Positions 1 to 17,712 of a stretch of DNA of 17,746 nt are shown here, one piece after another (the stretch's first letter is position 1; each line of letters opens with the position of its first letter). The translations under genes were made by a program, and so were the position numbers. The DNA lies in the UHGV virus genome UHGV-0072542. One strand, written 5' to 3'. The notes beneath the pieces were generated by a model. It ran no database searches, was not told the origin of the DNA, and worked only from the letters and a program-made list of their open reading frames with translations. Origin of the DNA: a virus.

Positions 1-1444
1 TGCCACCCCGTGTCAGCAGGGAGACTGCGTCATCCACCGGATGCATCAGGGACCAAGTTTTATTGCTCTGCTTGGTAACCTTAAACACACCATCTTCCAG
101 CGCAACACTGCCGCCGGTGATGGTCCAGCCCTGCGCAGCAGCCTCTCCGGCTGTCGGCAGCAGGGAGACTGTACGAACGGATGTGTCACCATCAGACGGC
201 CCCGATGGAGTGTCGCCGCCGGGCGAGGGTTTAATCTCCGGTGCGGTACCGCTGATGAAGGCGCTGGTTCGACCAACTGCGTTCAGAATAGCGGTTGCCA
301 GGCGATCCGAAATAATGCCCCTGCGCGCCCATGAACTGAAATGTGTCGGACGATTTGACGATACCCAATTACCATTACTACGGGATTGCGCGCCGTAATA
401 ACCTGCATCAGCAATATCCGGGTCTTCTGCCGGTAAGTTGGTGGGCGTGTTGTTGCCGTTACCGTCGGTCATGAACGGCACAAAGAAAACGTTGTCGCTC
501 TCCCTGTTTTTGTACGCGCCGTAGACGGAGTCATACTGTGTGCCGTATGTGTTTTTCCAGTAATACGTCGTGTCGCCACAAATCCACGGTACAACTGCAG
601 CACTGCCGCCATGGCACTGCGCGTTAAATCCGGAAAGGTCAGTACGGAACTGCTTCAGCATGGCCGTGAACAGGTCCGGTTGCTGTGCGTAGGTGGCAGC
701 GCTCATGTCAAATTCGCCCTGCATCCAGCACACCGCCAGCAACACATTTTTCGGGTTCTTCTGTAATGCCGCTTTGGTGCGTGCGATCAGGTCCTGATAT
801 AACGGTTTACCCACACCCCAGCGTGCCGAATCCTGGCTGGCCCCCGTGTCCGCACTGAATGTCCCCTCCGCGCCCTGGGTGAATGCCGAACCACCACGAC
901 AGCATGGTACCAGCAGGATCCCCGCGTTATTCGGGATATACGGGAGCAGTTTTTTGGCAATATGTAAGCCCTGGCCGACACAGCCGTACTGCCCTTTGCT
1001 CAGGTCTGCCTTCGGATGATTCAGTGCGCTCATATCCTGAACATCATGCAGGCAGTGGTCTGCCGGAATGATGTCGTTAAATGCGCATGCTTTACCACCG
1101 GGAGTCACTGTGTTGCGACGGGCCAGTTGCTTAATGCGTGGGTGGGGCGCATCGTAAGAATCCGGCAGCGGCATTCCATCACCATATGACATGGCATTGG
1201 ATTGACCAGCAAGTACCACCACGTAATACCACTCCGGCACGCTGCCGTGCTGGGGGGAATCAGGTGAGATGTCTGTAGTGCCATCGGCCACCATTGCCTG
1301 CATTAGATACCACGGGGTGCCGGGTTCGTAGGCAACCCGCGTCTCCCCCTGAAGATGCCACCCTTTCGCAAGATGTTCATTCACCTTTTGAGTCAGTTCA
1401 GCCTGTGTCATGGCTGTAATCAGTGCAAAGTTCTTACTGGTCAT
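1..1444 (-). CDS. DUF1737 + SGNH/sialate O-acetylesterase-like protein (NanS-p-like), 3' end beyond window; partial
   Basis: Hand translation of the reverse strand from ATG (complement of 1442-1444) gives 481 codons with no stop to position 1. N-terminus MTSKNFALITAMTQAELTQKVNEHLAKGWHLQGE resembles DUF1737. Downstream VVVLAGQSNAMSYGDG carries the GQSN serine motif of SASA/SGNH esterases. The start overlaps the Rz1 stop as ATGA. Not in the ORF track because it has no in-window stop. Confidence 0.6.
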   Translation of the reverse strand, partial: MTSKNFALITAMTQAELTQKVNEHLAKGWHLQGETRVAYEPGTPWYLMQAMVADGTTDISPDSPQHGSVPEWYYVVVLAGQSNAMSYGDGMPLPDSYDAPHPRIKQLARRNTVTPGGKACAFNDIIPADHCLHDVQDMSALNHPKADLSKGQYGCVGQGLHIAKKLLPYIPNNAGILLVPCCRGGSAFTQGAEGTFSADTGASQDSARWGVGKPLYQDLIARTKAALQKNPKNVLLAVCWMQGEFDMSAATYAQQPDLFTAMLKQFRTDLSGFNAQCHGGSAAVVPWICGDTTYYWKNTYGTQYDSVYGAYKNRESDNVFFVPFMTDGNGNNTPTNLPAEDPDIADAGYYGAQSRSNGNWVSSNRPTHFSSWARRGIISDRLATAILNAVGRTSAFISGTAPEIKPSPGGDTPSGPSDGDTSVRTVSLLPTAGEAAAQGWTITGGSVALEDGVFKVTKQSNKTWSLMHPVDDAVSLLTRGG

Positions 1445-1722
1445 TGTGTTACTCCCGTCTGGTGTGTCAGCTCGGCTATTCTCTTATCCAGTTCAGCAAT
1501 GGCCCGTTTATCCGCGTTACAGGTTTCCAGTGCATCCAGAAGGCGGTCGCCCCATATTCCGAGGTTTCCCCATGTGGGTGGGTCAGGGAAGGGGGGAGGC
1601 GTTACCGGCATGGTCAGCGTCTGCGGTATAAGCCGGACTGACGGCGCTGGCCCTGGCGCGTTCTGCGTGCCTGCGCAACCTGTCAGTAAAACGAGCGTCA
1701 GGCAAAGCGTGGGCGCATTCAT
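1441..1722 (-). CDS. o-spanin (Rz1/LysC-like outer-membrane lipoprotein)
   Basis: MNAPTLCLTLVLLTGCAGTQ has a lipobox (LLTGC) followed by a proline-rich segment (PVTPPPFPDPP). It starts in the +1 frame inside the Rz gene and extends past the Rz stop, as in P2 lysB/lysC. The start is the internal ATG at 1722; the ORF-track start at 1752 is a GTG. Confidence 0.7.
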   Translation of the reverse strand: MNAPTLCLTLVLLTGCAGTQNAPGPAPSVRLIPQTLTMPVTPPPFPDPPTWGNLGIWGDRLLDALETCNADKRAIAELDKRIAELTHQTGVTQ

Positions 1723-6462: not shown

Positions 6463-8214
6463 ATGATTCAGGACGCTTTTGTGCGCCAGCGTGCGCAGCA
6501 ACTTTACTGGCAGGGTTATCCGCCCGCAGAAATATCACGTCTGATGGGAATAAACCCGAACACGATTTATGCGTGGAAAAAACGCGACCAGTGGGATGAA
6601 ACGCCACCCGTGCAGCGTGTCACGCAGTCCATCGATGCGCGCCTCATCCAGCTTACTGAAAAACAGAATAAAACAGGCGGTGACTTTAAGGAAATAGACC
6701 TGCTGACCCGGCAGCTTAAAAAGCTGCATGATGGCCAGCCGGATGTGATGGCCGCAGGAAAGAAAGGCCGGGCGAAAAAACTCAAAAATCATTTCACGCC
6801 GGAACAGATTTCCGCACTGCGGGAAAAAATCATCAGCAGGCTGGAGTGGCATCAGCGGGGCTGGTTTGACTCCCTGACCCTTTGCAGGGAAGCCGGGATA
6901 CGTAACAGGATGATCCTGAAATCCCGACAGATTGGGGCGACCTGGTATTTTGCACAGGAAGCTCTGCTGATGGCGCTGCGTGACGATGTGGCGCAACCTT
7001 ACCAGCGTAACCAGATTTTTTTGTCTGCGTCGCGTCGTCAGGCGTTCCAGTTTAAAAGCATTATTCAGAAGGCCGCGGCTGAAGTTGATGTGGAGCTGAA
7101 AGGGGGCGATAAAATCACCCTCTCCAACGGCGCAGAGCTGCATTTTCTCGGCACTTCTGCTGCGTCGGCACAGTCCTATACGGGCAATTTTTATTTTGAT
7201 GAATTTTTCTGGGTCAGTCGCTTTGCTGAACTGCGCAAGGTGGCTGGCGCTATGGCAACCCTCAGCGGACTGCGGCGCACCTACTTCTCCACGCCATCCA
7301 CCGAAACGCACGAGGCATACGCCTACTGGAACGGCGACCGCTGGAACGAGAAAAAGGCCTCGCATAAACGCCAGCGTTTTTCTGTGGACTGGAAAACGCT
7401 GCATAACGGGCTTATCTGCCCTGACCGGACGTGGCGGCAAATTGTCACGCTGGAAGATGTGGTTAATCACGGCTGGAAACACACCGATATCGACGAAATT
7501 CGTGATGAAAACACCGAAGACGAGTTCCTCAATCTCTATATGTGTGAGTTTGTCCGCGAAGGGGAATCGGCATTTAACCTGAATATCCTGATTGGCTGCG
7601 GTGTTGACGGATACGACGACTGGAAAGACTGGAAACCTTTTGCTCCCCGCCCGATGGGGAATCGTCCGGTATGGATTGGGTATGACGCAAACGGCAGCAG
7701 TGGAAACGGCGACAGCGGCGCAGTGTCCGTGGTGGTTCCTCCGGCTGTTCCTGGTGGCCGTTTTCGAACGGTGGAGACGCGACGCGTTCAGGGGCTGGAG
7801 TTTGAAGAACAGGCCAGAGTCATTGAAGAGTTCACGTATCGCTACAACGTGGAACACATCGGCATTGATGTGACGGGCGGGAACGGGGAGGCTGTTTATC
7901 AGATAGTGAAACGGTTTTTCCCTGCAGCTATTCCGTACACCTTCACGCTGTCATCAAAACGGTCGCTGGTACTGAAAATGCTGCAAATAATGCGCGCCGG
8001 GCGGTGGGAATACGATCGCGCTGAACGCGAGCTGGTCGCAGCCTTTAACGCCGTGCGTAAGGTGAAAACACCGGGCGGCTTTATCACTTACGAAACGGAC
8101 CGCGCGAGGGGGATCAGCCACGGCGACCTTGCGTGGGCAACCATGCTTGCTGTCATTAACGAACCGATTGGCGGCGAAGGAGAAAACGAGCGTTTCACGG
8201 TTATGGAGTTCTGA
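6463..8214 (+). CDS. P: terminase large (ATPase) subunit (P2 gpP-like)
   Basis: 583 aa. ATG at 6463 preceded by GGGGGAG. Sequence character and position immediately upstream of the portal gene fit P2 gpP. Confidence 0.9.
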   Translation: MIQDAFVRQRAQQLYWQGYPPAEISRLMGINPNTIYAWKKRDQWDETPPVQRVTQSIDARLIQLTEKQNKTGGDFKEIDLLTRQLKKLHDGQPDVMAAGKKGRAKKLKNHFTPEQISALREKIISRLEWHQRGWFDSLTLCREAGIRNRMILKSRQIGATWYFAQEALLMALRDDVAQPYQRNQIFLSASRRQAFQFKSIIQKAAAEVDVELKGGDKITLSNGAELHFLGTSAASAQSYTGNFYFDEFFWVSRFAELRKVAGAMATLSGLRRTYFSTPSTETHEAYAYWNGDRWNEKKASHKRQRFSVDWKTLHNGLICPDRTWRQIVTLEDVVNHGWKHTDIDEIRDENTEDEFLNLYMCEFVREGESAFNLNILIGCGVDGYDDWKDWKPFAPRPMGNRPVWIGYDANGSSGNGDSGAVSVVVPPAVPGGRFRTVETRRVQGLEFEEQARVIEEFTYRYNVEHIGIDVTGGNGEAVYQIVKRFFPAAIPYTFTLSSKRSLVLKMLQIMRAGRWEYDRAERELVAAFNAVRKVKTPGGFITYETDRARGISHGDLAWATMLAVINEPIGGEGENERFTVMEF

Positions 8215-9260
8215 TGAGCAGAAAAAATAAAAAAGTGCGCATGAGTTCACGCATTGATCTCGCTGATGCGCTCAGGAAAGAATCATCGCTCAGTGCATTC
8301 ACATTTGATGGTCCTTATCGCCTGACCGGGCATGACCTGCTGGACAATATGTACTGTGCTGATAACGGGCGGTGGTATGAAACCCCGGTGGACTGGTACG
8401 GTCTGGCAAGAGCTGCCCGGCAAACGTCCTGGCATCAGTCTGCGCTTTACTTTAAGCGCAATGTATTACTCGGTTGCTACATCCCGCACCCGCTGCTTTC
8501 CCGGCAGGATTTCTCGGCGCTGGCGCTGGACTGGTTTGTGTTCGGTAACGCATTCCTTGAGCTTCGGAGCAATATGCTCGGCGAACCGCTTAAATTACGG
8601 CACGCCCTGGCGAAATACATGCGACGCGGAAGCGATCTTGAATCATGGTGGTATGTGCAGGATGGCAAGGACGCGTTTCAGTTTCGCCCTGACAAAGTGT
8701 GCCACCTGATGAATCCGGATATTAACCAGGAAATCTACGGCATGCCGGAATATCTTGGCGCATTACTCTCGGCCAGCCTTTCTCATTCGGCGGACATGTT
8801 CAGAAAACTGTACTACGACAACGGATCCCACGCCGGGTGCATCATCTACATCGGTGCAGCGCAGGTAAACCGCGAAAGCATGGACTCCCTGAAAGAAACG
8901 CTACAGGGTGCGCGTGGTGGTGGTGCGTTTAAAAACGTGCTCATTCATGCGCCCAACGGGGGCAAAGAAGGTGTGCAAATTTTGCCGTTCCAGCAGATCA
9001 CCGCAAAGGATGAGTTCATGAATGTTAAGGCGGCATCCCGTGATGATGTACTGGCTGCGCACCGCGTTCCGCCGCAACTGATGGGGGCGATGCCGGGCGA
9101 AAAAAGTGCGTTTGGTGATGTGGAGAAGGCCGCGCGGGTTTACGCAATTAACGAGCTGATGCCCGTCATGGAGGCCATGAAGCACATCAATGACTGGCTT
9201 GGCGAAGAGGTGATCCGCTTTAACCCTTACGCACTGTTAGACACCCAGCCCACATCCTGA
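8214..9260 (+). CDS. Q: portal protein (P2 gpQ-like)
   Basis: 348 aa; the start overlaps the terminase stop (TGATG). Size and position fit the P2 portal. Confidence 0.85.
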   Translation: MSRKNKKVRMSSRIDLADALRKESSLSAFTFDGPYRLTGHDLLDNMYCADNGRWYETPVDWYGLARAARQTSWHQSALYFKRNVLLGCYIPHPLLSRQDFSALALDWFVFGNAFLELRSNMLGEPLKLRHALAKYMRRGSDLESWWYVQDGKDAFQFRPDKVCHLMNPDINQEIYGMPEYLGALLSASLSHSADMFRKLYYDNGSHAGCIIYIGAAQVNRESMDSLKETLQGARGGGAFKNVLIHAPNGGKEGVQILPFQQITAKDEFMNVKAASRDDVLAAHRVPPQLMGAMPGEKSAFGDVEKAARVYAINELMPVMEAMKHINDWLGEEVIRFNPYALLDTQPTS

Positions 9261-9286: not shown

Positions 9287-9311
9287 CGGGGCATAAAAAA
9301 TTTATGCCCCG
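9287..9311 (+). terminator. hairpin downstream of portal gene (possible terminator; no clear U-tract)
   Basis: cggggcataaaaaatttatgccccg is a palindrome lying 27 nt after the Q stop. Confidence 0.3.
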
Positions 9312-9612
9312 ACTCTCCAGCTCCTGTATCAGTCAGATAATTTCACGACGCCTTCCAGTTTATCGCCACCATCGACGGTCAGGCTCTTACGCAATCCCAC
9401 CGCGTTGACTGCATGTTCTCGCCGCCTCAGTGCGATTTTGACGGCCTTACCTTTCACCCCATTAAATCAGAATCCCTCACGTATTTTTCACGCTCAGCGT
9501 GAGAAATACGGCCATTCTGTCGTGTCGCTGCGACATCGTTAAGGGAACGCTATTTACCCCCTGAAACGCGGGCTGTTCCCCCGTCACCTGCGCGCAGAAA
9601 AAACGCGTTTTT

Positions 9613-9711
9613 TTGTGCATGCACGGATCCTTGACGGATCCAGCCGCCATGCGGGCCGAAAGGGTAAAAAGTCGTTCAAAAAAATTGTGCAAATTTGTGC
9701 ACTATTGTGCA
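9613..9711. repeat. TTGTGCA direct repeats (three copies at 10-bp phasing, plus one upstream copy embedded in palindrome GTGCATGCAC)
   Basis: TTGTGCA occurs at 9685-9691, 9695-9701 and 9705-9711, and again at 9613-9619. The region is intergenic, between cos (expected nearby) and the cargo operon. Confidence 0.5.
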
Positions 9712-9718
9712 TTGAAAT

Positions 9719-9740
9719 AAACGCCCTGGAGGAGGGCGTT
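9719..9740 (-). terminator. intrinsic terminator at the end of the cargo operon (hairpin with T-rich flanks both sides)
   Basis: aacgccctggaggagggcgtt has an 8-bp stem and is flanked by T/A-rich runs. It lies immediately 3' of the stop at 9745-9747. Confidence 0.5.
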
Positions 9741-9744
9741 TTAC

Positions 9745-10152
9745 TTATCTTTTATAGCCTTGCCCCTTTCTGGCCAGCGCCCTGATGGCCGGGCGTGCCA
9801 ACACCATATTTTGGCAATGATGAATTGCCCGGCAAAATTCATCTCTACCCATTGGATGCTCAACTGGCAACGTTAAATACAGGTTCCATGCGTCGCCTAA
9901 AAGTTGGGCTATCTTTTGTTCTTCAGATGTCAGCAAGCAAGCGGTATCCGTAAAATAATCATACTTTTCATGTATGTTATTTAACGGTTTTGTCTGTAGT
10001 GCAGCCTGAGCTATACGGTATGCCTGAAGCATACTGGCGTCGTTGATATCCATTCCGAACGGAATTTCTGATGATTGTGACTCTGCATCTTCAAGCCTGG
10101 CAATTTCTTTACGTAAGAAGTACTTCAACTCTTGTTTCTGTTTTCTGTTCAT
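9745..10152 (-). CDS. hypothetical protein (135 aa), second gene of two-gene cargo cassette
   Basis: The ATG at 10150-10152 overlaps the upstream stop (ATGA). The gene is AT-richer than the flanking phage genes. No recognisable family; the product is [25 protein letters not shown]...[28 protein letters not shown]. Confidence 0.6.
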
Positions 10153-10481
10153 GCGTTTTTTTCCTTTTTGTCTGTCACTTCTTTCCTGATAATTTCATTG
10201 CACAAATCCACGCACTCATTGCAGATGTAAACAGACGGTCCGGCAATCACCTTTGTGACTTCGTACTGGGATTTATTGCAGAAACTGCAATAAACCGTCT
10301 TCTCGCCTGAAGTCCATGTTTTGCTGGTTTCGCCAGACATCAGTTGTTTGAGGTCTTTTTCACGACGAAGAACTATCTGGCCACATTCAGCTATTTTTTG
10401 GATGTTGACATTTTCTGCTTTCGCCAGCGCTTCCATCCGCTCAATCAGTCGCTGCGCTTTTTCTCTGTCAATGTGTTGCAT
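10149..10481 (-). CDS. small protein with C-terminal ClpX-type C4 zinc-binding domain (ZBD) and N-terminal helical region
   Basis: The C-terminus [40 protein letters not shown] is near-identical in pattern to the N-terminal zinc-binding domain of E. coli ClpX ([34 protein letters not shown], recalled). ATG at 10481 with an AAGGGGGA SD 5 nt upstream. Confidence 0.7.
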
Positions 10482-10544
10482 TGTGTCCCCCTTGTTTATG
10501 CTCCCGGGTTAAAGTCATCAGGGCGGATGCGCCCTGATGTTGTG

Positions 10545-10856
10545 TTATTCGGGAAATAACGCCCGGATATTTCCGGCCATCTGACTGGTTATCTGTGCGG
10601 CTGATACTGGCTGTGACGCGGGGCGTTCTGTCCTGGTTTGTGTCACTGATAACGCCTCATCATCAGCCCATGCAGCCAGTCGGTAAGCCTCTGCCGGATT
10701 CATTTTCAGTAGTGCCAGCCCGGCCAGAAAAGCCACGCGTTGACCACTTTTGCGGGCTTCTGGTGTAAGGCTGTCCAGCCAGGCGCATGCTTCGCCTTCG
10801 TTCTTGACGGCGGCGGGCTTCAGATAGAAACTTATCCGTCTGGTTGGTGTCGTCAT
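10545..10856 (-). CDS. parR: ParR-like centromere-binding protein (type II partition)
   Basis: RRISFYLKPAAVKNEGEACAWLDSLTPEARKSGQRVAFLAGLALL resembles the recalled R1 ParR N-terminus (RTIAFKLNPDVNQTDKIVCDTLDSIPQGERSRLNRAALTAGLALY). It lies 4 nt downstream of parM. Start taken at the internal ATG at 10856. Confidence 0.65.
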   Translation of the reverse strand: MTTPTRRISFYLKPAAVKNEGEACAWLDSLTPEARKSGQRVAFLAGLALLKMNPAEAYRLAAWADDEALSVTQTRTERPASQPVSAAQITSQMAGNIRALFPE

Positions 10857-10860
10857 TGGT

Positions 10861-11820
10861 TTACTCCTTGTCCATTGCGTACAGCCCATTAACCAGAGCA
10901 AACTGTGGCACCCCGTCCGCGATGAAGGTCGCATTAACTCCGCAGGCTTCGCGGATAGCGGGTGCCACAATCTCCGCCCCGCCACCGACAACCATCACCC
11001 GCCCGTAACCCGAAAAACCCGCCAGCGCGCGGATCACGCGTTGTTTCAGTGTTTCTTCCTTTTCACGAATAACCGCCATCAGGCTGGCGTAATGCGCGTC
11101 ATTGTGGATGTGCTGGCGCAGCCAGGCTTCATCATGGCGATGTTCGATAATGGTATTGGCGATGTGGTGACTGGTACGCATACCGTTAGTGGCCATCACC
11201 GACAGTACGGCATCGGCCATCAGGGAAACGCCTACGTGTGGATCGCAAAACACCTGGCTGATACCTGCCAGTTGTCCCTGAACCTTTGCCACATCCAGCG
11301 TGGTTCCGCCTAAATCCACAATCAGCAGGGATTCAAACGGACTCATGTCAGCCAGTGCTTTAAAACCAGCCGGAATGGATTCAGGCATAACCCGTACGTT
11401 ACGGATAGTGAATGCTTTTCCGTTCTGGTACGCCACCGGGCGCATGACGTTTGCTTTTTTGCGGTTGATGTTGGCCATGTCCGGCTGTGCGTTTGTGTCG
11501 AAATATTCGCTCAGTGGCAGGGTGACAACCACATCCACTTCCTGTGGTGTGATGCCTGATTTGACCAGCGCGTGATGAATGGCAATGACATTCACATCGC
11601 TGTACTGGTATTGCGTGTCGGTCGTCTGGACAAAGCGATCGCTGACTGGATCAAAACCATAGCGCACGCCATCAAGCATGTAGTTCGCGGGCTGCGTGCC
11701 ACCGAACGGCGCAGACCATTCCGACTTGAAGCTGTTCGGGCTGATGGCGTTGCGGCGTTCGCCGTTCTCAGTCCATGCCAGCTTGATGTTGGTGGAGCCG
11801 TCATCGATACAAATTTTCAT
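10861..11820 (-). CDS. parM: ParM/StbA-like actin-like segregation ATPase
   Basis: 319 aa. IDDGSTNIKLAW, ISPNSFK, YSDVNVIAIHHAL, IRNVRVMPESIPAG, LLIVDLGGTTLDV, VMVVGGGAEI and VNGLY match the recalled plasmid R1 ParM along its whole length. ATG at 11820 with an AAGGAAAA SD. Confidence 0.85.
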   Translation of the reverse strand: MKICIDDGSTNIKLAWTENGERRNAISPNSFKSEWSAPFGGTQPANYMLDGVRYGFDPVSDRFVQTTDTQYQYSDVNVIAIHHALVKSGITPQEVDVVVTLPLSEYFDTNAQPDMANINRKKANVMRPVAYQNGKAFTIRNVRVMPESIPAGFKALADMSPFESLLIVDLGGTTLDVAKVQGQLAGISQVFCDPHVGVSLMADAVLSVMATNGMRTSHHIANTIIEHRHDEAWLRQHIHNDAHYASLMAVIREKEETLKQRVIRALAGFSGYGRVMVVGGGAEIVAPAIREACGVNATFIADGVPQFALVNGLYAMDKE

Positions 11821-11850
11821 GTCGCTTTTCCTTATGTTGATTAATTAATC

Positions 11851-11962
11851 GTTTACGGGATTCTGAAATCCCGTTTTTGCCTGTTTTATGCGCGCTTCAT
11901 ATATCGCGGCGCGTTTTTTGCTCATTTACGGGATTTGTGAATCCCGTTTCTGTCTGTTTTTT
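11851..11962. repeat. two copies of a ~35-bp hairpin-containing repeat flanking the A stop / parM upstream region
   Basis: Copy 1 is tttacgggattCTGAaatcccgttttt (hairpin 11855-11874). Copy 2 is tttacgggattTGTGaatcccgtttct (hairpin 11928-11947). Both are followed by T-runs on the plus strand. Spacing is 73 bp, and copy 2 lies inside the 3' end of gene A. Confidence 0.5.
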
Positions 11963-14719
11963 GTTTCCACTGGTCAGGCCACCCCGCAGCAGGTCTGCTT
12001 TGCGGCGGGCGCGTTCAGTGGTTTCACTGATTCTCTGTGCGTGCTCTGCGTCGCGGATGGCGCGCAGCATGTCAGAAAGCACGGTAACGGGTGTTTTCAT
12101 GGTGTTCTGGTCCTGCTGAAGTGTGGATGCCAGGCGTGCGGCGGCTTCGGGGTCTGATGCCCCCAGCTGTTCCAGATAGCTGGCGACCGGGTTATGGCGG
12201 ATCTCCGTGCTGCTTACGCCGTGGTTACGGCTCAGGCGCTGCCAGAGCTGCGTGATCCGGCTGTCCGGTCGGGTATCCGGTTTGCGTACAATTTCAAATC
12301 CCTGCGGTGCAATGATGCTGCCGTCAACGTACAGGCTGCCTCCCCGTAACAGGTGCTGCATCTGCTGTTCACCGATATGCAGGCCGAGAGATTCGGCAGA
12401 TTCCCGCCATTCTTTAGCGAGTAATTCGTGGTTATCAGGCAAAGGCCGCGGCTGTTTGCGGCTCTGTGTCCAGCTCTGCATTTCATCACTGCTGTTTTTT
12501 GCCTGTTTGTCACGCAGCGAACGCATCAGCGCCCGGCGTTCGTGCCGTTTCAGTGAGCGCATCCATTCATTCACATCAATGCCGTCAGGAAGCTGCGGCC
12601 ATGGTGCTGGCCGTTCTTCCGGCTGTTCTGTCCCGTTGTTGTCCGTTTCCTGTACACGGGGACAGTTATTGCCACGAGTCCAAGGGGCGGCAGGGCCGCC
12701 CTGAAGGTCAAAACCATTTTCGCGGGCGCTGTCTTCAGCTTCCGGTTTGCGTCTTACCAGCTTCCAGTTATCCGGATGCGTGCACACACGGGAGGATTCC
12801 CCGATGAGTGGTGACCAGATCCCGTAAATCTGTACGCTCTGTTCGCCGTAATCGTTCAGCTCATCGGCGAGGTCGTAGGCGGTGCGAATCAGGTAGTCTT
12901 TGCGTGGAACAAGTACGCCGCCCTGTTTCTCTATGTAGGTGGCAAAACATCCGGCATCAGCGGCAGCGAGTACCGCATCCATTGCGTCATCCTTCAGCCG
13001 TTGCGGGCCTTCCGGGTTGCGTGCCATCTGGCTGGCAAGGCGGCGGAGTTCACGCCACACCTGACGGGAGGGGATGCCAAAGAACTGGAACTGGCGGACC
13101 CGGTGAAGGCGCGCCCAGCCAATGGCACGCTCCACGCTCTCGGCCATTGATTTTCCGGATTCATGGTCAACGCGTGGTTTGCCCGTTTTCGGGTCGATGC
13201 CATCCACGGCGCGGCTGTCCAGGTTTTTTCCGATGTAGGTCGCGATATAGCTGGTTGGTGTGCCTTTTGAGCCGTCGACGTACTCCGCCTCAAAGCGCGG
13301 GGTTATGTCATCGCCCAGCTCGTGGCGGTCTTCCTGAATGGCAATATCGCAGACGTGAGACACAATGGTGTCGATTTCGTCCGGATGCGCAAAAACCATC
13401 ATGTGCCAGTGCACGGTACCGTCATGGTGAGGCTCCGCTGTGCGGATGCCATACCAGCGCAGACCTTCACGGTTCAGTTTCTTGCGGACCGCTGCAAAAA
13501 ACGTGTTAACCAGGTAATCGCTGGAGTCGCGCATGGTGGCCCCGTTCCATTTGGGATTCGGATGACCGTTCTCTGTTGTTGCGTGGTATTTTGACGGGCA
13601 GGTGACAGTCAGAAACACCGCTCTGTCGCCACGGGCTTCGGCCAGAAGTTCCAGTCCCTTCATGGTGGCCATCATTTCTGCCTTACGGTGAACCGGGTTA
13701 CTTACTCCCGCGTAATACACTGTCTCGAGATCAATCGTGAACCCGTCTTCGTTTTCCAGCATGAAACTTTTCAGGAAATCGCGTGTTTTCTCGCGCTGTG
13801 CGCGAAACTCGCTTAACGCGTCCTGGCTCAGATAGGGCGATGTTTTTCTGGAAACCAGACAGGCGGCGCGGAGTTGTTCTTCTCTCCACTCGCAACGTAA
13901 CAGCCACAGTTTGTGTTTCCACCATTGCGCACAGGTCAGGCGAAGGATTGCGCCCGGCAGCAGCTCCGTGTCCGGTTCGTTCCTCCGGTCTTTGTCTGTT
14001 GTCAGTGCGTCATAATGCGGAGGCATGGCGTGCAGGTGTAACGCCATGCGGGCCAGCATCTGATACGCCTTCAGCGTTACATCCATGGTCAGCTCGCCAT
14101 CAGTCGCGCCAAAGCCATCGCAGAGTTTTTCGAAGGTGCTGCTGAACATCGCCGCCGTCATGGTGGCCAGCGTCTGTATCTGGTGCTTGTTGAGCTGCGG
14201 CAGGTAAAGCAAATCATCCAGGCGTTCGCGTCCGGCAAGGGAGCGATAACCCGGTGTCAGCCAGTGTCCGTCAGTGCGATCCAGACGTTCGAATATTTTG
14301 CGCAGGGTTCCGCGTGCATAGCGTTCCGCCTGCCAGCTCTTTTTGCCTTTCCGGCGATCGGCTTCCTGTTTTTTGCGCAGGAAGGAGAGGTGGCGAATAA
14401 GCGGATCGCGCAGATAGGACGGCAGCAGGCGCAGCGAGGCCATGGCTTCATCCACCGCGCCGCGTGCCTGTTTTCTGGCGTCTCCTGCCAGTGTGATGGT
14501 TTTGTCCTGTTTTTCCTGTGCGTCCAGGCTTTTATTAATCAGGTTGCCCAGCGGCGTGGCGGAGAACGCCGCATCAGCCATTTCCTGGCGGCGCTCGTTC
14601 TCTACCCGGTAGGCATCCAGCCAGGAGGAAAGCGCGGATTCAGGAGCGGGGATCCCCGTTCCTTCACGCCCCACTGCGTGGCGCGGTTGTTGCCAGTCCC
14701 TGATGTACTCTGCCGTCAT
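11897..14719 (-). CDS. A: replication initiator endonuclease (P2 gpA-like, rolling-circle HUH family)
   Basis: 940 aa with the HUH-type motif VHWHMMVFAHP and the paired-tyrosine motif TSYIATYIGKN. Its position downstream of the early operon fits P2/186 gene A. Confidence 0.85.
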   Translation of the reverse strand: MTAEYIRDWQQPRHAVGREGTGIPAPESALSSWLDAYRVENERRQEMADAAFSATPLGNLINKSLDAQEKQDKTITLAGDARKQARGAVDEAMASLRLLPSYLRDPLIRHLSFLRKKQEADRRKGKKSWQAERYARGTLRKIFERLDRTDGHWLTPGYRSLAGRERLDDLLYLPQLNKHQIQTLATMTAAMFSSTFEKLCDGFGATDGELTMDVTLKAYQMLARMALHLHAMPPHYDALTTDKDRRNEPDTELLPGAILRLTCAQWWKHKLWLLRCEWREEQLRAACLVSRKTSPYLSQDALSEFRAQREKTRDFLKSFMLENEDGFTIDLETVYYAGVSNPVHRKAEMMATMKGLELLAEARGDRAVFLTVTCPSKYHATTENGHPNPKWNGATMRDSSDYLVNTFFAAVRKKLNREGLRWYGIRTAEPHHDGTVHWHMMVFAHPDEIDTIVSHVCDIAIQEDRHELGDDITPRFEAEYVDGSKGTPTSYIATYIGKNLDSRAVDGIDPKTGKPRVDHESGKSMAESVERAIGWARLHRVRQFQFFGIPSRQVWRELRRLASQMARNPEGPQRLKDDAMDAVLAAADAGCFATYIEKQGGVLVPRKDYLIRTAYDLADELNDYGEQSVQIYGIWSPLIGESSRVCTHPDNWKLVRRKPEAEDSARENGFDLQGGPAAPWTRGNNCPRVQETDNNGTEQPEERPAPWPQLPDGIDVNEWMRSLKRHERRALMRSLRDKQAKNSSDEMQSWTQSRKQPRPLPDNHELLAKEWRESAESLGLHIGEQQMQHLLRGGSLYVDGSIIAPQGFEIVRKPDTRPDSRITQLWQRLSRNHGVSSTEIRHNPVASYLEQLGASDPEAAARLASTLQQDQNTMKTPVTVLSDMLRAIRDAEHAQRISETTERARRKADLLRGGLTSGNKKQTETGFTNPVNEQKTRRDI

Positions 14720-15478: not shown

Positions 15479-15678
15479 CTGCGTGACTCCTGTACCTGTC
15501 TGATAAGATTCACCTGCACCACGTTGGTGGCGCAGAAGTAAGTGCCGTCAGTGAGATAGATGTGATGTGCATCCTTTTCTGAACGGTGTTTGTCGATTGT
15601 GGTAATCAGGCGTTCGTCAACTTCGTATTCACGTCCTCTGGAGGTGAAACGAACGACAGGAAAATGCTTAATTGCCAT
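15475..15678 (-). CDS. hypothetical early-operon protein (67 aa)
   Basis: The internal ATG at 15678 is preceded by an AAGGAGG SD 5 nt upstream. The ORF-track start at 15729 is a GTG with no SD. Confidence 0.5.
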   Translation of the reverse strand: MAIKHFPVVRFTSRGREYEVDERLITTIDKHRSEKDAHHIYLTDGTYFCATNVVQVNLIRQVQESRR

Positions 15679-15764
15679 TACGCCTCCTTGACGTGTGCGA
15701 ATACCTCCGCGAATGCGGATTGTTTTCACATTTTCTTATTTAACCTGGGGGCTTATTTGCGCGG

Positions 15765-15878
15765 TTATTCTTCAGTGAAAAAGCGTTCAATCTTTTTTAC
15801 TGAATTAATAATTCGCATAATCCCAATGGCGCAGACCACCGAAATAATCAGAACAAGCCATGAGATAAATATACTCAT
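15765..15878 (-). CDS. small hydrophobic peptide (37 aa, single predicted transmembrane helix)
   Basis: Hand translation gives MSIFISWLVLIISVVCAIGIMRIINSVKKIERFFTEE. The ATG at 15876-15878 overlaps the stop of the upstream gene (ATGA). Below the ORF-track length cutoff. Confidence 0.4.
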   Translation of the reverse strand: MSIFISWLVLIISVVCAIGIMRIINSVKKIERFFTEE

Positions 15879-16117
15879 GCGATATTTCCCAGCTTATACG
15901 GTTCAATATGTTCCCCGCATTCTGCGGCATAGATCAGCTCGGAAAGTTCGTTAAGTGCATCCAGATCATCAGCGTAAAAAGCCACGTCATACAGACTTCG
16001 GATTGCTCTGGTCAATGAGTCACGGGCCGCACGTTCAGCATGAGCGCCTGATGCACTTAAGCGAAAATAAAAACGCTCAAGTGCTTTGTTAATGAGAGTT
16101 TTATATTCTTTGCCCAT
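15875..16117 (-). CDS. hypothetical early-operon protein (80 aa, acidic)
   Basis: ATG at 16115-16117 with an AAAGGG SD. The ORF-track start at 16120 is a GTG. Confidence 0.5.
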   Translation of the reverse strand: MGKEYKTLINKALERFYFRLSASGAHAERAARDSLTRAIRSLYDVAFYADDLDALNELSELIYAAECGEHIEPYKLGNIA

Positions 16118-16128
16118 CACAACGCCCT

Positions 16129-16407
16129 TTAATCTGCTTTCTGAATTTCAGCTTCTGAATCCATACAAATAATTTCGATATAGGGTTCATCGTCATTAAC
16201 CTGACGTGCCTTTTCAGCTTCGCTAATGATTTCTCGTACGGTCTGGTACGGAAGCTCCACAGTCAGGCGCGTACCGTTCAGATAAACGTAAGTAGCTGCG
16301 TTTTTTTCGAATGGAACAACTCCGTCAATGGCTGATGCGCGTAATAACAGTTCACCGCGAAAATCAATAAAACGGATAAATACACCTTGTGCATGCTCTT
16401 TGGTCAT
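16129..16407 (-). CDS. hypothetical early-operon protein (92 aa)
   Basis: The internal ATG at 16407 has an AGGUG SD 5 nt upstream. The ORF-track start at 16467 is a TTG. Confidence 0.5.
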   Translation of the reverse strand: MTKEHAQGVFIRFIDFRGELLLRASAIDGVVPFEKNAATYVYLNGTRLTVELPYQTVREIISEAEKARQVNDDEPYIEIICMDSEAEIQKAD

Positions 16408-16417
16408 AAAGCACCTG

Positions 16418-16768
16418 TTATAAATCAGCCTGTTTAATAAAACTTTGCCCGCGAAGCAGACGATCAACCGTGCGAAGTGCTTCGTATAATGTGAAATCCT
16501 GCCCGAAGTGATTGTCGCCGCAGTTCAATGCAAAAATGCGGTTTCCGGTAAACGGATTGCGTGGGCATTTGTGGACCACGATTCCAGCTTTCTCAATCAG
16601 CCAGGCATGCTCGCCGATTTGTTTTACAGCGTGGCCATCCGGTGTTGCGTGCGTCTCGTTCAGGTTATAGCGACTGTTACTACGTGATGCACTGGTAGCG
16701 ACGTGGTGTACATGGCGTTCTACGCCATTACGAAATTTGGAGTATGGATTATTAGCGTTTTTTTTCAT
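16418..16768 (-). CDS. hypothetical early-operon protein (116 aa), possibly regulatory
   Basis: ATG at 16768; basic N-terminus. Its position corresponds to the cII/regulatory slot of 186-like early operons, but no motif was confirmed. Confidence 0.5.
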   Translation of the reverse strand: MKKNANNPYSKFRNGVERHVHHVATSASRSNSRYNLNETHATPDGHAVKQIGEHAWLIEKAGIVVHKCPRNPFTGNRIFALNCGDNHFGQDFTLYEALRTVDRLLRGQSFIKQADL

Positions 16769-16789
16769 GATGGTGCTCTGTTCATTGTT

Positions 16790-16993
16790 TTAGCTGTTAG
16801 CCAAAGCGTCTTTTAACATCGCCACAAGGTTTACTTCAGGCTTTTCCATTTTGGCGCGTTTGGGTCGGATAATAATTCGACCGTCAGCCAACATCTTTTT
16901 GCATGTATTAAGAGGGATACCTGTTATCTCTGCATATTTCTGCAGGGATACATAGGGGGCATTCACATTGATATTGATGGTTATACCTGACAT
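16790..16993 (-). CDS. small putative DNA-binding protein (HTH; excisionase/Cox-like candidate)
   Basis: 67 aa. YVSLQKYAEITGIPLNTCKKMLADGRI looks like a helix-turn-helix. ATG at 16993 with an AGGAGG SD. Confidence 0.5.
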   Translation of the reverse strand: MSGITININVNAPYVSLQKYAEITGIPLNTCKKMLADGRIIIRPKRAKMEKPEVNLVAMLKDALANS

Positions 16994-17009
16994 CCCACTA
17001 GCCTCCTGA

Positions 17010-17216
17010 TCAGGAAGATTTGTTTTGTTCTTTCTGGGTTAGCTCTAGGCCGCGAAGGAAGATCATGCGCGCCATGTTAGAGGATGAGCGTTGTTCTTTA
17101 GCTGCCATTTCATCAATGACGGCTCGCTCCTCGAGGGACAGCCGAAGTGCCAGTCTTGGACCTGTGGCGGTGTTACGCGGAATGCGTGATCTGGTATCGT
17201 GAAGAACTTGTTTCAT
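17010..17216 (-). CDS. first early-operon gene; putative ribbon-helix-helix-like regulator (Cro/Cox/Apl position)
   Basis: 68 aa. RLALRLSLEERAVIDEMAAKEQRSSSNMARMIF has a beta-strand-helix-helix pattern. It is divergent from the repressor gene and sits directly downstream of the operator/promoter. Confidence 0.45.
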   Translation of the reverse strand: MKQVLHDTRSRIPRNTATGPRLALRLSLEERAVIDEMAAKEQRSSSNMARMIFLRGLELTQKEQNKSS

Positions 17217-17291
17217 AGTGGTATATTGTGATCATCTAATAGCTCGTGAAATCATTTTGGTATCAAAAAAGATACCTGTCAAGGTTTTTGT
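17217..17291. promoter_or_regulatory. divergent switch region: early promoter (minus strand) with palindromic operator in its spacer
   Basis: Minus-strand TTGACA (complement of 17277-17282), a 17-nt spacer, then a CAAAAT -10-like hexamer. The spacer contains the perfect palindrome GGTATC-AAAAAA-GATACC (17259-17276). A GGTAT half-site-like copy lies at 17219-17223. Confidence 0.45.
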
Positions 17292-17696
17292 ATGAAAAAT
17301 GATATTGGTCAGCGGTTGCGTGAGGAAAGGGAAAGATTGGGACTTAGTCAAGTTGCCATGAGCGACATTGGTGGAGTCAAAAAGCTAACTCAGCTTAGAT
17401 ATGAGAAAGGAGATAGCTTTCCTGATGCTGCGTATTTGGCAGCGCTGTCTCGTTTTGGCCTTGATGTTCAGTATGTTGTGTTGGGAATTCACTCATCTGA
17501 AACTTATAACGATGATGAGCAGGAGTTGATTACTCGCTTTCGAGCAGCTTCGTTAGATGTGAAAAATGCGGTGATTGGGGCTTTAAAAGGTGCGATCAGT
17601 GAAAAGGAAACTCAGCCATCAGGACGTGAGTTAAATATTTCTGGTGGTAATAACCGTATCGCTGGTCGTGACTATAACGAAACTAAGGGTAGGTGA
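17292..17696 (+). CDS. phage repressor, XRE-family HTH (immunity repressor candidate)
   Basis: 134 aa. IGQRLREERERLGLSQVAMSDIGGVKKLTQLRYEKGDSFPDAAYLAALSRFGLDV is a canonical XRE HTH. The gene is divergent from the early operon and AT-rich. Confidence 0.8.
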   Translation: MKNDIGQRLREERERLGLSQVAMSDIGGVKKLTQLRYEKGDSFPDAAYLAALSRFGLDVQYVVLGIHSSETYNDDEQELITRFRAASLDVKNAVIGALKGAISEKETQPSGRELNISGGNNRIAGRDYNETKGR

Positions 17697-17712
17697 TAGT
17701 AGGGAGGTGACA

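Follow-up and report, generated by a model that had tools for sequence, protein, structure and literature searches.

The UHGV virus genome UHGV-0072542, a stretch of 17,746 nucleotides (nt) referred to here in its whole length as the window, is a P2-like prophage of Escherichia coli of the P88 type (Xuanwuvirus, Peduoviridae). On its minus strand, at positions 10149–10481, it encodes a 110-residue protein that ends in a free-standing copy of the zinc-binding domain (ZBD) found at the N-terminus of ClpX. The best explanation for this protein, which is advanced tentatively, is that it serves in trans as a decoy or competitor and so modulates proteolysis by ClpXP where this depends on adaptors and the ZBD. 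The gene overlaps a second open reading frame (ORF), which encodes a 135-residue protein (9745–10152, minus strand), by the 4 nt ATGA at 10149–10152. An earlier note, made from the sequence alone, had described this arrangement correctly as to coordinates and overlap, and had read the two genes as a cargo cassette. As judged from their distribution among genomes, the meaningful unit appears instead to be the single 110-residue gene.

The assignment of the domain rests on several comparisons. Residues 64–99 match the Pfam family PF06689 (zf-C4_ClpX) over profile positions 2–38 of 39, with an E-value of 6.9e-18 and a score of 64.7 bits, where the curated gathering cut-off is 27. No gap is needed to align the segment with the solved structures of the E. 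coli ClpX ZBD (1ovx, 2ds5; E of about 1e-19 to 1e-20), and identity to residues 12–51 of E. coli ClpX is found at 31 of 40 positions. The full domain spans residues 63–102 (10176–10295, minus strand) with C65, C68, C87 and C90 as zinc ligands, and the protein ends 8 residues past the ZBD helix. The protein has no AAA+ module, and the full-length ClpX models TIGR00382 and NF003745 give scores of 51 and 49.5 bits, against cut-offs of 370.75 and 359. RefSeq names the protein a "ClpX C4-type zinc finger protein", and phrog_6797, a family of unknown function, covers residues 1–106 (E=1.6e-57). PADLOC-DB v2 returned no defence-model match for it. In many NCBI records (e.g. for P88 gp19, at L001 3788–4120; L and P numbers are our handles for loci and proteins) the same protein carries the label "carboxylate--amine ligase" without domain support, which looks like a propagated mis-annotation.

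Ahead of the ZBD lies a domain of a different kind. The AlphaFold2 monomer, built on a 12-sequence alignment with a mean predicted local distance difference test (pLDDT) score of 77, has helices at residues 6–22 and 27–48 and a disordered segment at 53–59, after which comes the ZBD, C-terminal helix included. Residues 1–48 (10338–10481, minus strand) thus form an N-terminal helical-hairpin domain, with a conserved Cys at residue 33. An exhaustive phmmer search with residues 1–58 against 1.84 billion representatives gave 11 matches at E<=1e-3, nearly all of them family members or truncated fragments; the exception was P0159 (1212 residues, six stretches). The hairpin therefore appears essentially confined to this phage protein family. 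Together, the Pfam search, the alignment to PDB structures, the scores of the ClpX models and the AlphaFold2 prediction bear out the earlier description of a ClpX C4 ZBD look-alike that has a helical N-terminus and no AAA+ module.

Within the family, conservation is highest in the ZBD core, and the hairpin diverges far more. Among 14 family members compared, the four Cys residues (C14, C17, C36 and C39 in ClpX) are invariant, as is the Phe equivalent to ClpX F16 (F67 of the window's protein), while the equivalent of ClpX I46 (I97) is Ile in 11, Val in two and Leu in one. The motifs CSFC, IAG, IC-ECVD-C and II vary little or not at all across these members, the GPSVYIC strand of ClpX is kept in the window's protein, and the ZBD cores are identical to E. 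coli ClpX at 20–35 of 40 positions. Such likeness to ClpX residues 12–51 is also what a pseudogenised or recently captured, functionless fragment of host clpX would display, but the coding DNA leaves that explanation with next to no likelihood. When the ZBD-coding DNA was used in a sensitive ("distant") blastn search of 5426 complete E. coli genomes, 178 genomes gave matches; every match among those listed is annotated as a stand-alone "ClpX C4-type zinc finger protein", and in none of the 5426 did the search reach host clpX. Between the cores and MG1655 clpX, nucleotide identity is 65–77% and the proportion of synonymous differences (pS) is saturated at 0.83–1.04, while protein identity is 71–89%; the ratio of nonsynonymous to synonymous substitution (dN/dS) within the family is 0.08–0.42. 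P0016 and P0019 each resemble E. coli ClpX (84% and 89%) more than they resemble one another (79%). Moreover, the ORF is intact, has its own ribosome-binding site (RBS) and an additional conserved domain, and the family is spread over P2-like phages, phage-plasmids and lambdoid-type prophages. The worry that the homologues might be remnants of a pseudogenised clpX is thereby dispelled, and pseudogene and recent capture alike are ruled out by the blastn result, the saturated pS and the low dN/dS. Owing to the saturated synonymous sites, the high protein identity and the low dN/dS, the domain is old, under purifying selection and kept close to the host ClpX N-domain.

What such a domain could do outside ClpX is suggested by work on the host protein. 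Residues F16 and I46 mark the hydrophobic patch on the ClpX N-domain to which lambda O, trigger factor, SspB and RssB bind (PMC7804408), and deletion of the ZBD abolishes degradation of both lambda O (PMC7804408) and, where it depends on RssB, sigma-S (PMC7226468). Purified ZBD added in trans inhibits the RssB-mediated breakdown of sigma-S by ClpXP in a dose-dependent manner (PMC7226468 Fig. 1d), so that titration of ClpX adaptors, one of the roles raised in the earlier note, is plausible. The family comprises temperate-phage proteins in which a family-specific hairpin is joined by a flexible linker to a ClpX-type ZBD. In the mechanism proposed here, a dimer of the phage ZBD would offer the hydrophobic docking surface that ClpX offers and, because of this shared surface, would act in trans on the ClpX network and compete for adaptors and substrates whose docking on the ClpX N-domain is required, for instance SspB, RssB and degrons of the lambda O type. 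Antitoxins may be among them too, for example Phd, which in the case of P1 is known to be degraded by ClpXP (Lehnherr and Yarmolinsky 1995, as cited in PMC10286901). ClpXP proteolysis would be dampened or redirected as a result, which would favour the phage or the lysogen. The identity and conservation of the domain, the selection on it, the mutual independence of the two genes and the constant position of the ZBD gene in P2-like phages are shown by the sequences; the binding of ClpX ligands, the decoy effect and the physiological target are what we infer.

Several considerations weigh against the decoy proposal. Inhibition by free ZBD in vitro took an approximately 10- to 30-fold excess over ClpX (PMC7226468); accordingly, a decoy would need either high expression or a gain in avidity through the hairpin. 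A pure decoy model leaves the conserved N-terminal hairpin unexplained. The high conservation of so small a zinc-stabilised fold could in part reflect structural constraint, as opposed to ligand specificity. Finally, the gene is dispensable in nature, given that it has been deleted in frame from 57 genomes and that many P88-like phages are without it.

Two other functions for the ZBD protein were considered alongside that of a decoy. One is an adaptor by domain mimicry, in which the phage ZBD heterodimerises with or docks on ClpX and the hairpin serves as a phage-specified substrate-binding module that recruits a host or phage protein to ClpXP. The most conserved parts of the domain are its C-terminal helix and beta-hairpin (VYIC, ECVDLC, II), which we take to be the dimer interface of the ClpX ZBD, and conservation of the hairpin domain across the family, with its near-invariant Cys and its specificity to the family, argues for specific binding beyond that of a decoy. 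There is also a precedent in SPO1 Gp53, an adaptor-like phage protein that acts on a Clp ATPase (PMC6873191). Nevertheless, the adaptor remains rather unlikely: ZBD dimers are reported to be stable homodimers, which makes subunit exchange with ClpX uncertain (PMC7226468), and the varying neighbours of the gene point to no candidate substrate. In its broadest form, the idea would be that temperate phages of enterobacteria (Peduoviridae, phage-plasmids of the P1-like and other kinds, and lambdoid types) carry a ClpX N-domain mimic that plugs into ClpX, through mixed ZBD dimers or by occupying the adaptor sites, and whose hairpin re-programs which proteins ClpXP unfolds or spares. This generalisation is likewise doubtful; candidate targets under it would be replication proteins, repressors and ClpXP-labile antitoxins such as Phd.

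The other function departs from ClpX altogether, in that the fold would have been co-opted as a zinc ribbon or treble clef that binds DNA, RNA polymerase or a phage protein, in the manner of Ogr/Delta or TraR/DksA. The same regions do often encode small regulatory C4 zinc proteins (L009, for example, has Ogr_Delta and L016 has TraR/DksA), free ZBDs are fused to unrelated modules in other phages, such as the 303-residue protein of L078, and the GPSVY strand has drifted to GDAVF in the plasmid and lambdoid subfamily. Co-option is, however, quite unlikely, since in most members the cores remain 70–89% identical to E. coli ClpX despite saturated synonymous sites and far more diverged N-terminal domains, and since this identity extends beyond the zinc ligands to surface residues of the adaptor-docking patch.

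A last alternative concerns both genes together, and holds that they constitute a functional cassette for toxin-antitoxin (TA) addiction or anti-phage defence, with the ZBD protein as sensor, antitoxin or SocAB-like ClpXP adaptor and the 135-residue protein as effector. The ATGA overlap and the TA-typical sizes of the genes would suit such a system, as would its place in the defence hotspot between gpA and gpQ of P2, adjoining a partition system; TA modules (phd/doc and hicAB-like) occupy the same locus, and a gene with the same N-module follows the ZBD gene in 27 of 41 P88-like viral contigs. The distribution of the genes is nonetheless at odds with a pair. Some part of the cassette is matched in 209 of the 5426 complete E. 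coli genomes, but the whole intact pair is present in only 14, and 57 genomes of diverse serotypes and sources, including O157:H7, have lost the ZBD gene through an in-frame deletion of 294 base pairs while keeping the 135-residue gene. The deletion (equivalent to 10160–10457 of the window; L003 3848–3900, L004 5404–5460) is flanked by short A-rich repeats and leaves a 12-codon ORF that retains the original RBS and is still coupled by ATGA to the intact 135-residue gene. These 57 genomes indicate that the 135-residue protein has no need of the ZBD protein, and that it is not a toxin restrained by it.

The surroundings in the viral contigs agree with this. The order gpA-parM-parR-ZBD is found in 41 of 41 P88-like contigs, and the gene that comes after ZBD varies: the window-type 135-residue gene follows in four, a gene with the same N-module and a different C-module (as in P88 gp20) in 23, a different N-module on the same C-module in four, an unrelated gene of 174 residues with an ead/Ea22-like gene in six, and a convergent phd/doc pair in four. 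Genes with the N-module and genes with the C-module each occur in P2-like prophages without the ZBD gene, distant ZBD-family members lack a partner of the 135-residue type, and beside the divergent ZBD genes lie either unrelated genes or no neighbours at all. Since overlaps of stop and start codons are usual in such compact operons (e.g. L016, L018), the ATGA overlap carries little weight for pairing. With respect to a TA pair in particular, no toxin or antitoxin domain was found by Pfam, NCBIfam or a fold search on the 135-residue protein, and the two genes are not co-inherited (the pair is present in 14 genomes, and in 57 the ZBD gene is lost while the 135-residue gene is intact); PADLOC, Pfam and NCBIfam gave no toxin, antitoxin or defence match for the cassette. 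A two-gene TA or defence cassette is thus largely ruled out as an obligate pair by the distribution across genomes and contigs, and is improbable as a functional unit in general. In this respect the two-gene system claimed in the earlier note does not stand.

The 135-residue neighbour is better described on its own terms. It had been called a protein of no recognisable family, which is true as regards Pfam, NCBIfam and PDB sequences, none of which gave a match; on the other hand, each half belongs to a PHROG family of unknown function or dubious annotation. The N-module (residues 1–57, 9982–10152) matches phrog_660 and the C-module (residues 63–135, 9748–9966) matches phrog_13916, whose label "DNA ligase" is without domain support and looks like another propagated mis-annotation. 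AlphaFold2 predicts a pair of helical hairpins, with little confidence (pLDDT 61), Foldseek against the PDB found no fold match, and PADLOC-DB v2 gave just a spurious partial match (E=0.012). Homologues of the protein share one half only. The modules are exchanged at a conserved joint, "AL(Q/E)(A/T)KP" (9982–10000 of the window, codons ~51–57), with one N-module found on four or more different C-termini and one C-module on two or more N-termini. By this pattern the gene is a mosaic accessory gene that shuffles independently. Its C-module holds a His/Cys pattern, PVEHP...FCRAIHHCQ, between two predicted helices, which is largely retained in stand-alone homologues of 75–86 residues from Hafnia, Enterobacter, Pectobacterium and Yersinia and may be a metal site.

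The ZBD gene, for its part, is independent and widespread among phages. Approximately 3% of complete E. coli genomes carry the family, and 303 relatives are present in IMG/VR. Relatives with the same hairpin and ZBD architecture, at 29–69% identity, occupy the same place after gpA in further P2-like prophages, those of Salmonella and E. coli among them, where the gene is co-oriented with gpA and lies near cos and the portal gene, and where its neighbours are unrelated or absent; in all P2-like relatives it comes after the gpA early operon. A second subfamily, that in which the GPSVY strand has drifted, is found in phage-plasmids of ~90–113 kb and in one lambdoid-type prophage, surrounded by ead/Ea22-like, DUF4752, DUF551 and similar accessory early genes. 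Its frequent neighbour is an MKFSKF... protein, unrelated to the 135-residue protein, and no partner common to the divergent ZBD genes was found.

The phd/doc genes adjoin the ZBD gene in two independent P2-like lineages (L005 4080–4831 and L015 1579–2330; L077 2849–3630, the same as L109), in which the ZBD proteins are ~92% and 36% identical to that of the window. Since P2-like hotspots that lack a ZBD gene also contain this Doc family, the association is just a lead, and a specific link between ZBD and phd/doc is suggestive only. In a distant P2-like phage, a small gene pair that resembles HicA/HicB by eye follows the ZBD gene (L079 4405–5042) and would be a further TA module in the hotspot. 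Elsewhere among viruses, L078 (2400–3311) encodes the 303-residue protein mentioned above, in which a part that is ParB-like by eye precedes a C-terminal ZBD; several IMG/VR sequences (L081–L084, L087, L090, L091) encode short free-standing ZBD proteins with unrelated extensions; and large phages encode full-length ClpX (L085, L086, L092–L099).

Positions 9300–11000 are 96% identical to Escherichia phage P88 over 87% of their length, and an identical copy resides in the chromosome of E. coli Z1323HEC0010, adjoining an integrase gene and yecA/tyrP. On the plus strand lie the terminase gene (6463–8214) and the portal gene gpQ (8214–9260, by Pfam PF04860 and annotation), the latter being the far boundary of the hotspot (PMC9122126), with the cos region between 9260 and 9719. 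On the minus strand, parR, which encodes a StbB-like partition adaptor (Pfam PF10784, E=3.9e-24), lies directly upstream of the ZBD gene in 41 of 41 P88-like loci. The ORF list gives parR as 10545–10991, a frame of 148 residues with a TTG start and a 131-nt overlap with parM, but RefSeq and the position of the Pfam match (residues 51–121) indicate a true start at 10856 and hence a protein of 103 residues (10545–10856). It is preceded by parM (10861–11820), which encodes the StbA actin-like segregation ATPase (Pfam PF06406, 6.9e-82; PF21523, 1.3e-68), and by gpA, the replication endonuclease gene (11897–14719; Pfam PF05840, E=1.3e-128). The interval from gpA to gpQ has been described as a defence hotspot of P2-like phages (PMC9122126). 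The earlier placement of the cassette between gpA and Q in this hotspot is thus correct, with the nuance that parM and parR (10545–11820) stand between gpA and the ZBD gene. Both ORFs of the cassette are also AT-rich, as had been noted, with a GC content of 0.39–0.46 over 9750–10500 compared to 0.52–0.60 in the flanks.

The RBS of the ZBD gene, AAGGGGG, lies 6–7 nt 5′ of the ATG, and the 63-nt spacer between parR and the ZBD gene holds a GC-rich hairpin (10516–10539) with no U-tract after it on the transcribed (minus) strand. A sigma-70-like promoter was not detected in this spacer, nor was a LexA box found near the cassette, so that SOS control is not supported. A further hairpin, at 9719–9741 directly after the stop codon of the 135-residue gene, is likely a bidirectional intrinsic terminator that closes the operon, and is kept in P88, where a different C-module stands upstream of it. 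Given the short gap, the hairpin without a U-tract, the lack of a spacer promoter and the terminator-like hairpin after the 135-residue gene, read-through from parMR is likely, and the ZBD gene is probably transcribed together with gpA and parMR, as a distal member of this early and partition operon.

Some further features of the prophage bear on its partition and accessory genes. A 42-nt direct repeat is present in two copies (11849–11890 and 11922–11963) that are 81% identical and 73 nt apart, one in the gpA-parM spacer and the other within the 3′ end of gpA. Each copy holds a 20-nt palindrome, ACGGGATT..AATCCCGT, and the repeats are a candidate parC-like centromere or operator for ParMR. 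A second AT-rich stretch (15600–17700, GC 0.42–0.48) at the right end comprises small early genes and a helix-turn-helix repressor region. At the opposite end, positions 1–1494 (minus strand), cut by the edge of the window, correspond via L006 to the gene of a 626-residue DUF6645 protein, which is inserted between the lysis and tail-completion genes and marks a second accessory locus of the prophage.

ClpXP controls RpoS, SOS proteins and replication proteins of several phages, as well as the stability of some antitoxins. A phage copy of the ClpX docking platform, if the proposal is correct, would accordingly be a simple and testable route to rewire host proteolysis, and could possibly blunt protease-triggered TA or abortive-infection responses. 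Should the protein instead plug into ClpX itself, it would represent viral hijack of a bacterial AAA+ protease by means of a copy of its own substrate-selection domain. In either case the family is frequent enough to matter for the physiology of lysogens. The history of the pair also provides a caution, in that adjacent and overlapping genes in the P2 hotspot should not be read as "systems".

Among known proteins, the closest relative of the phage domain is the ZBD of ClpX itself (PF06689; PDB 1OVX, 2DS5–2DS8), with which it shares the fold family, as judged by hidden Markov model and alignment, the four Cys residues and the F16/I46 patch, at an identity of 78–82% depending on the stretch compared. 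Unlike the ClpX domain, that of the phage is C-terminal, follows a helical hairpin, is attached to no AAA+ ring and is encoded by temperate phages and phage-plasmids. Other viral ZBDs without AAA+ modules, namely those of phrog_12435, of a 65-residue "Clp protease" of Pseudomonas phage PP9W2 and of the short IMG/VR proteins listed above, are comparable in this last respect, but their extensions differ or are absent and the helical hairpin is missing. A different comparison is offered by Phd/Doc, a type II TA system, and SocAB, a type VI TA system whose antitoxin is a ClpXP adaptor. As in those systems, two small overlapping genes adjoin a partition system and have a link to ClpXP; here, however, the pair is not co-conserved, the 135-residue gene outlives the loss of its neighbour and no TA family signature is present.

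With respect to function, there are known phage proteins directed at AAA+ proteases of the host: RexB of lambda blocks ClpP, PinA of T4 and gp4.5 of T7 both have Lon as their target (PMC10286901), and that of SPO1 Gp53 is ClpC (PMC6873191). The four form a functional class that has no sequence signature in common. Like the ZBD protein, these are small accessory phage proteins; they alter host proteolysis, as the ZBD protein is proposed to do. Some of the four prevent protease-dependent activation of TA systems (PMC10286901, PMC6873191). The Ira anti-adaptors (IraP, IraM and IraD) and the competition between SspB and RssB provide a host parallel, in that both act on adaptor docking and not on the catalytic machine, and a free ZBD would sequester RssB or SspB in a comparable way (PMC7226468). 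The Ira proteins bind RssB through unrelated folds, whereas the phage ZBD would mimic the docking platform. To our knowledge, none of RexB, PinA, gp4.5, Gp53 and the Ira anti-adaptors copies the docking domain of the protease itself, and we know of no sequence relationship between the ZBD protein and the first four.

The claim that no such system had been described holds with one qualification. Full-text searches of the literature turned up no account of what a free-standing phage ZBD does; the arrangement itself, however, is listed as "StbA + Plasmid_stab_B + zf-C4_ClpX + hypothetical" in Table S5A of Rousset et al. (2022; PMC9122126), whose hotspot section does not name it among the validated systems; no sign of its having been analysed or put to the test was found there. 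If the function proposed here is correct, the ZBD protein would belong to a kind already known, that of phage modulation of regulated proteolysis in the host, achieved in this case through mimicry of a domain.

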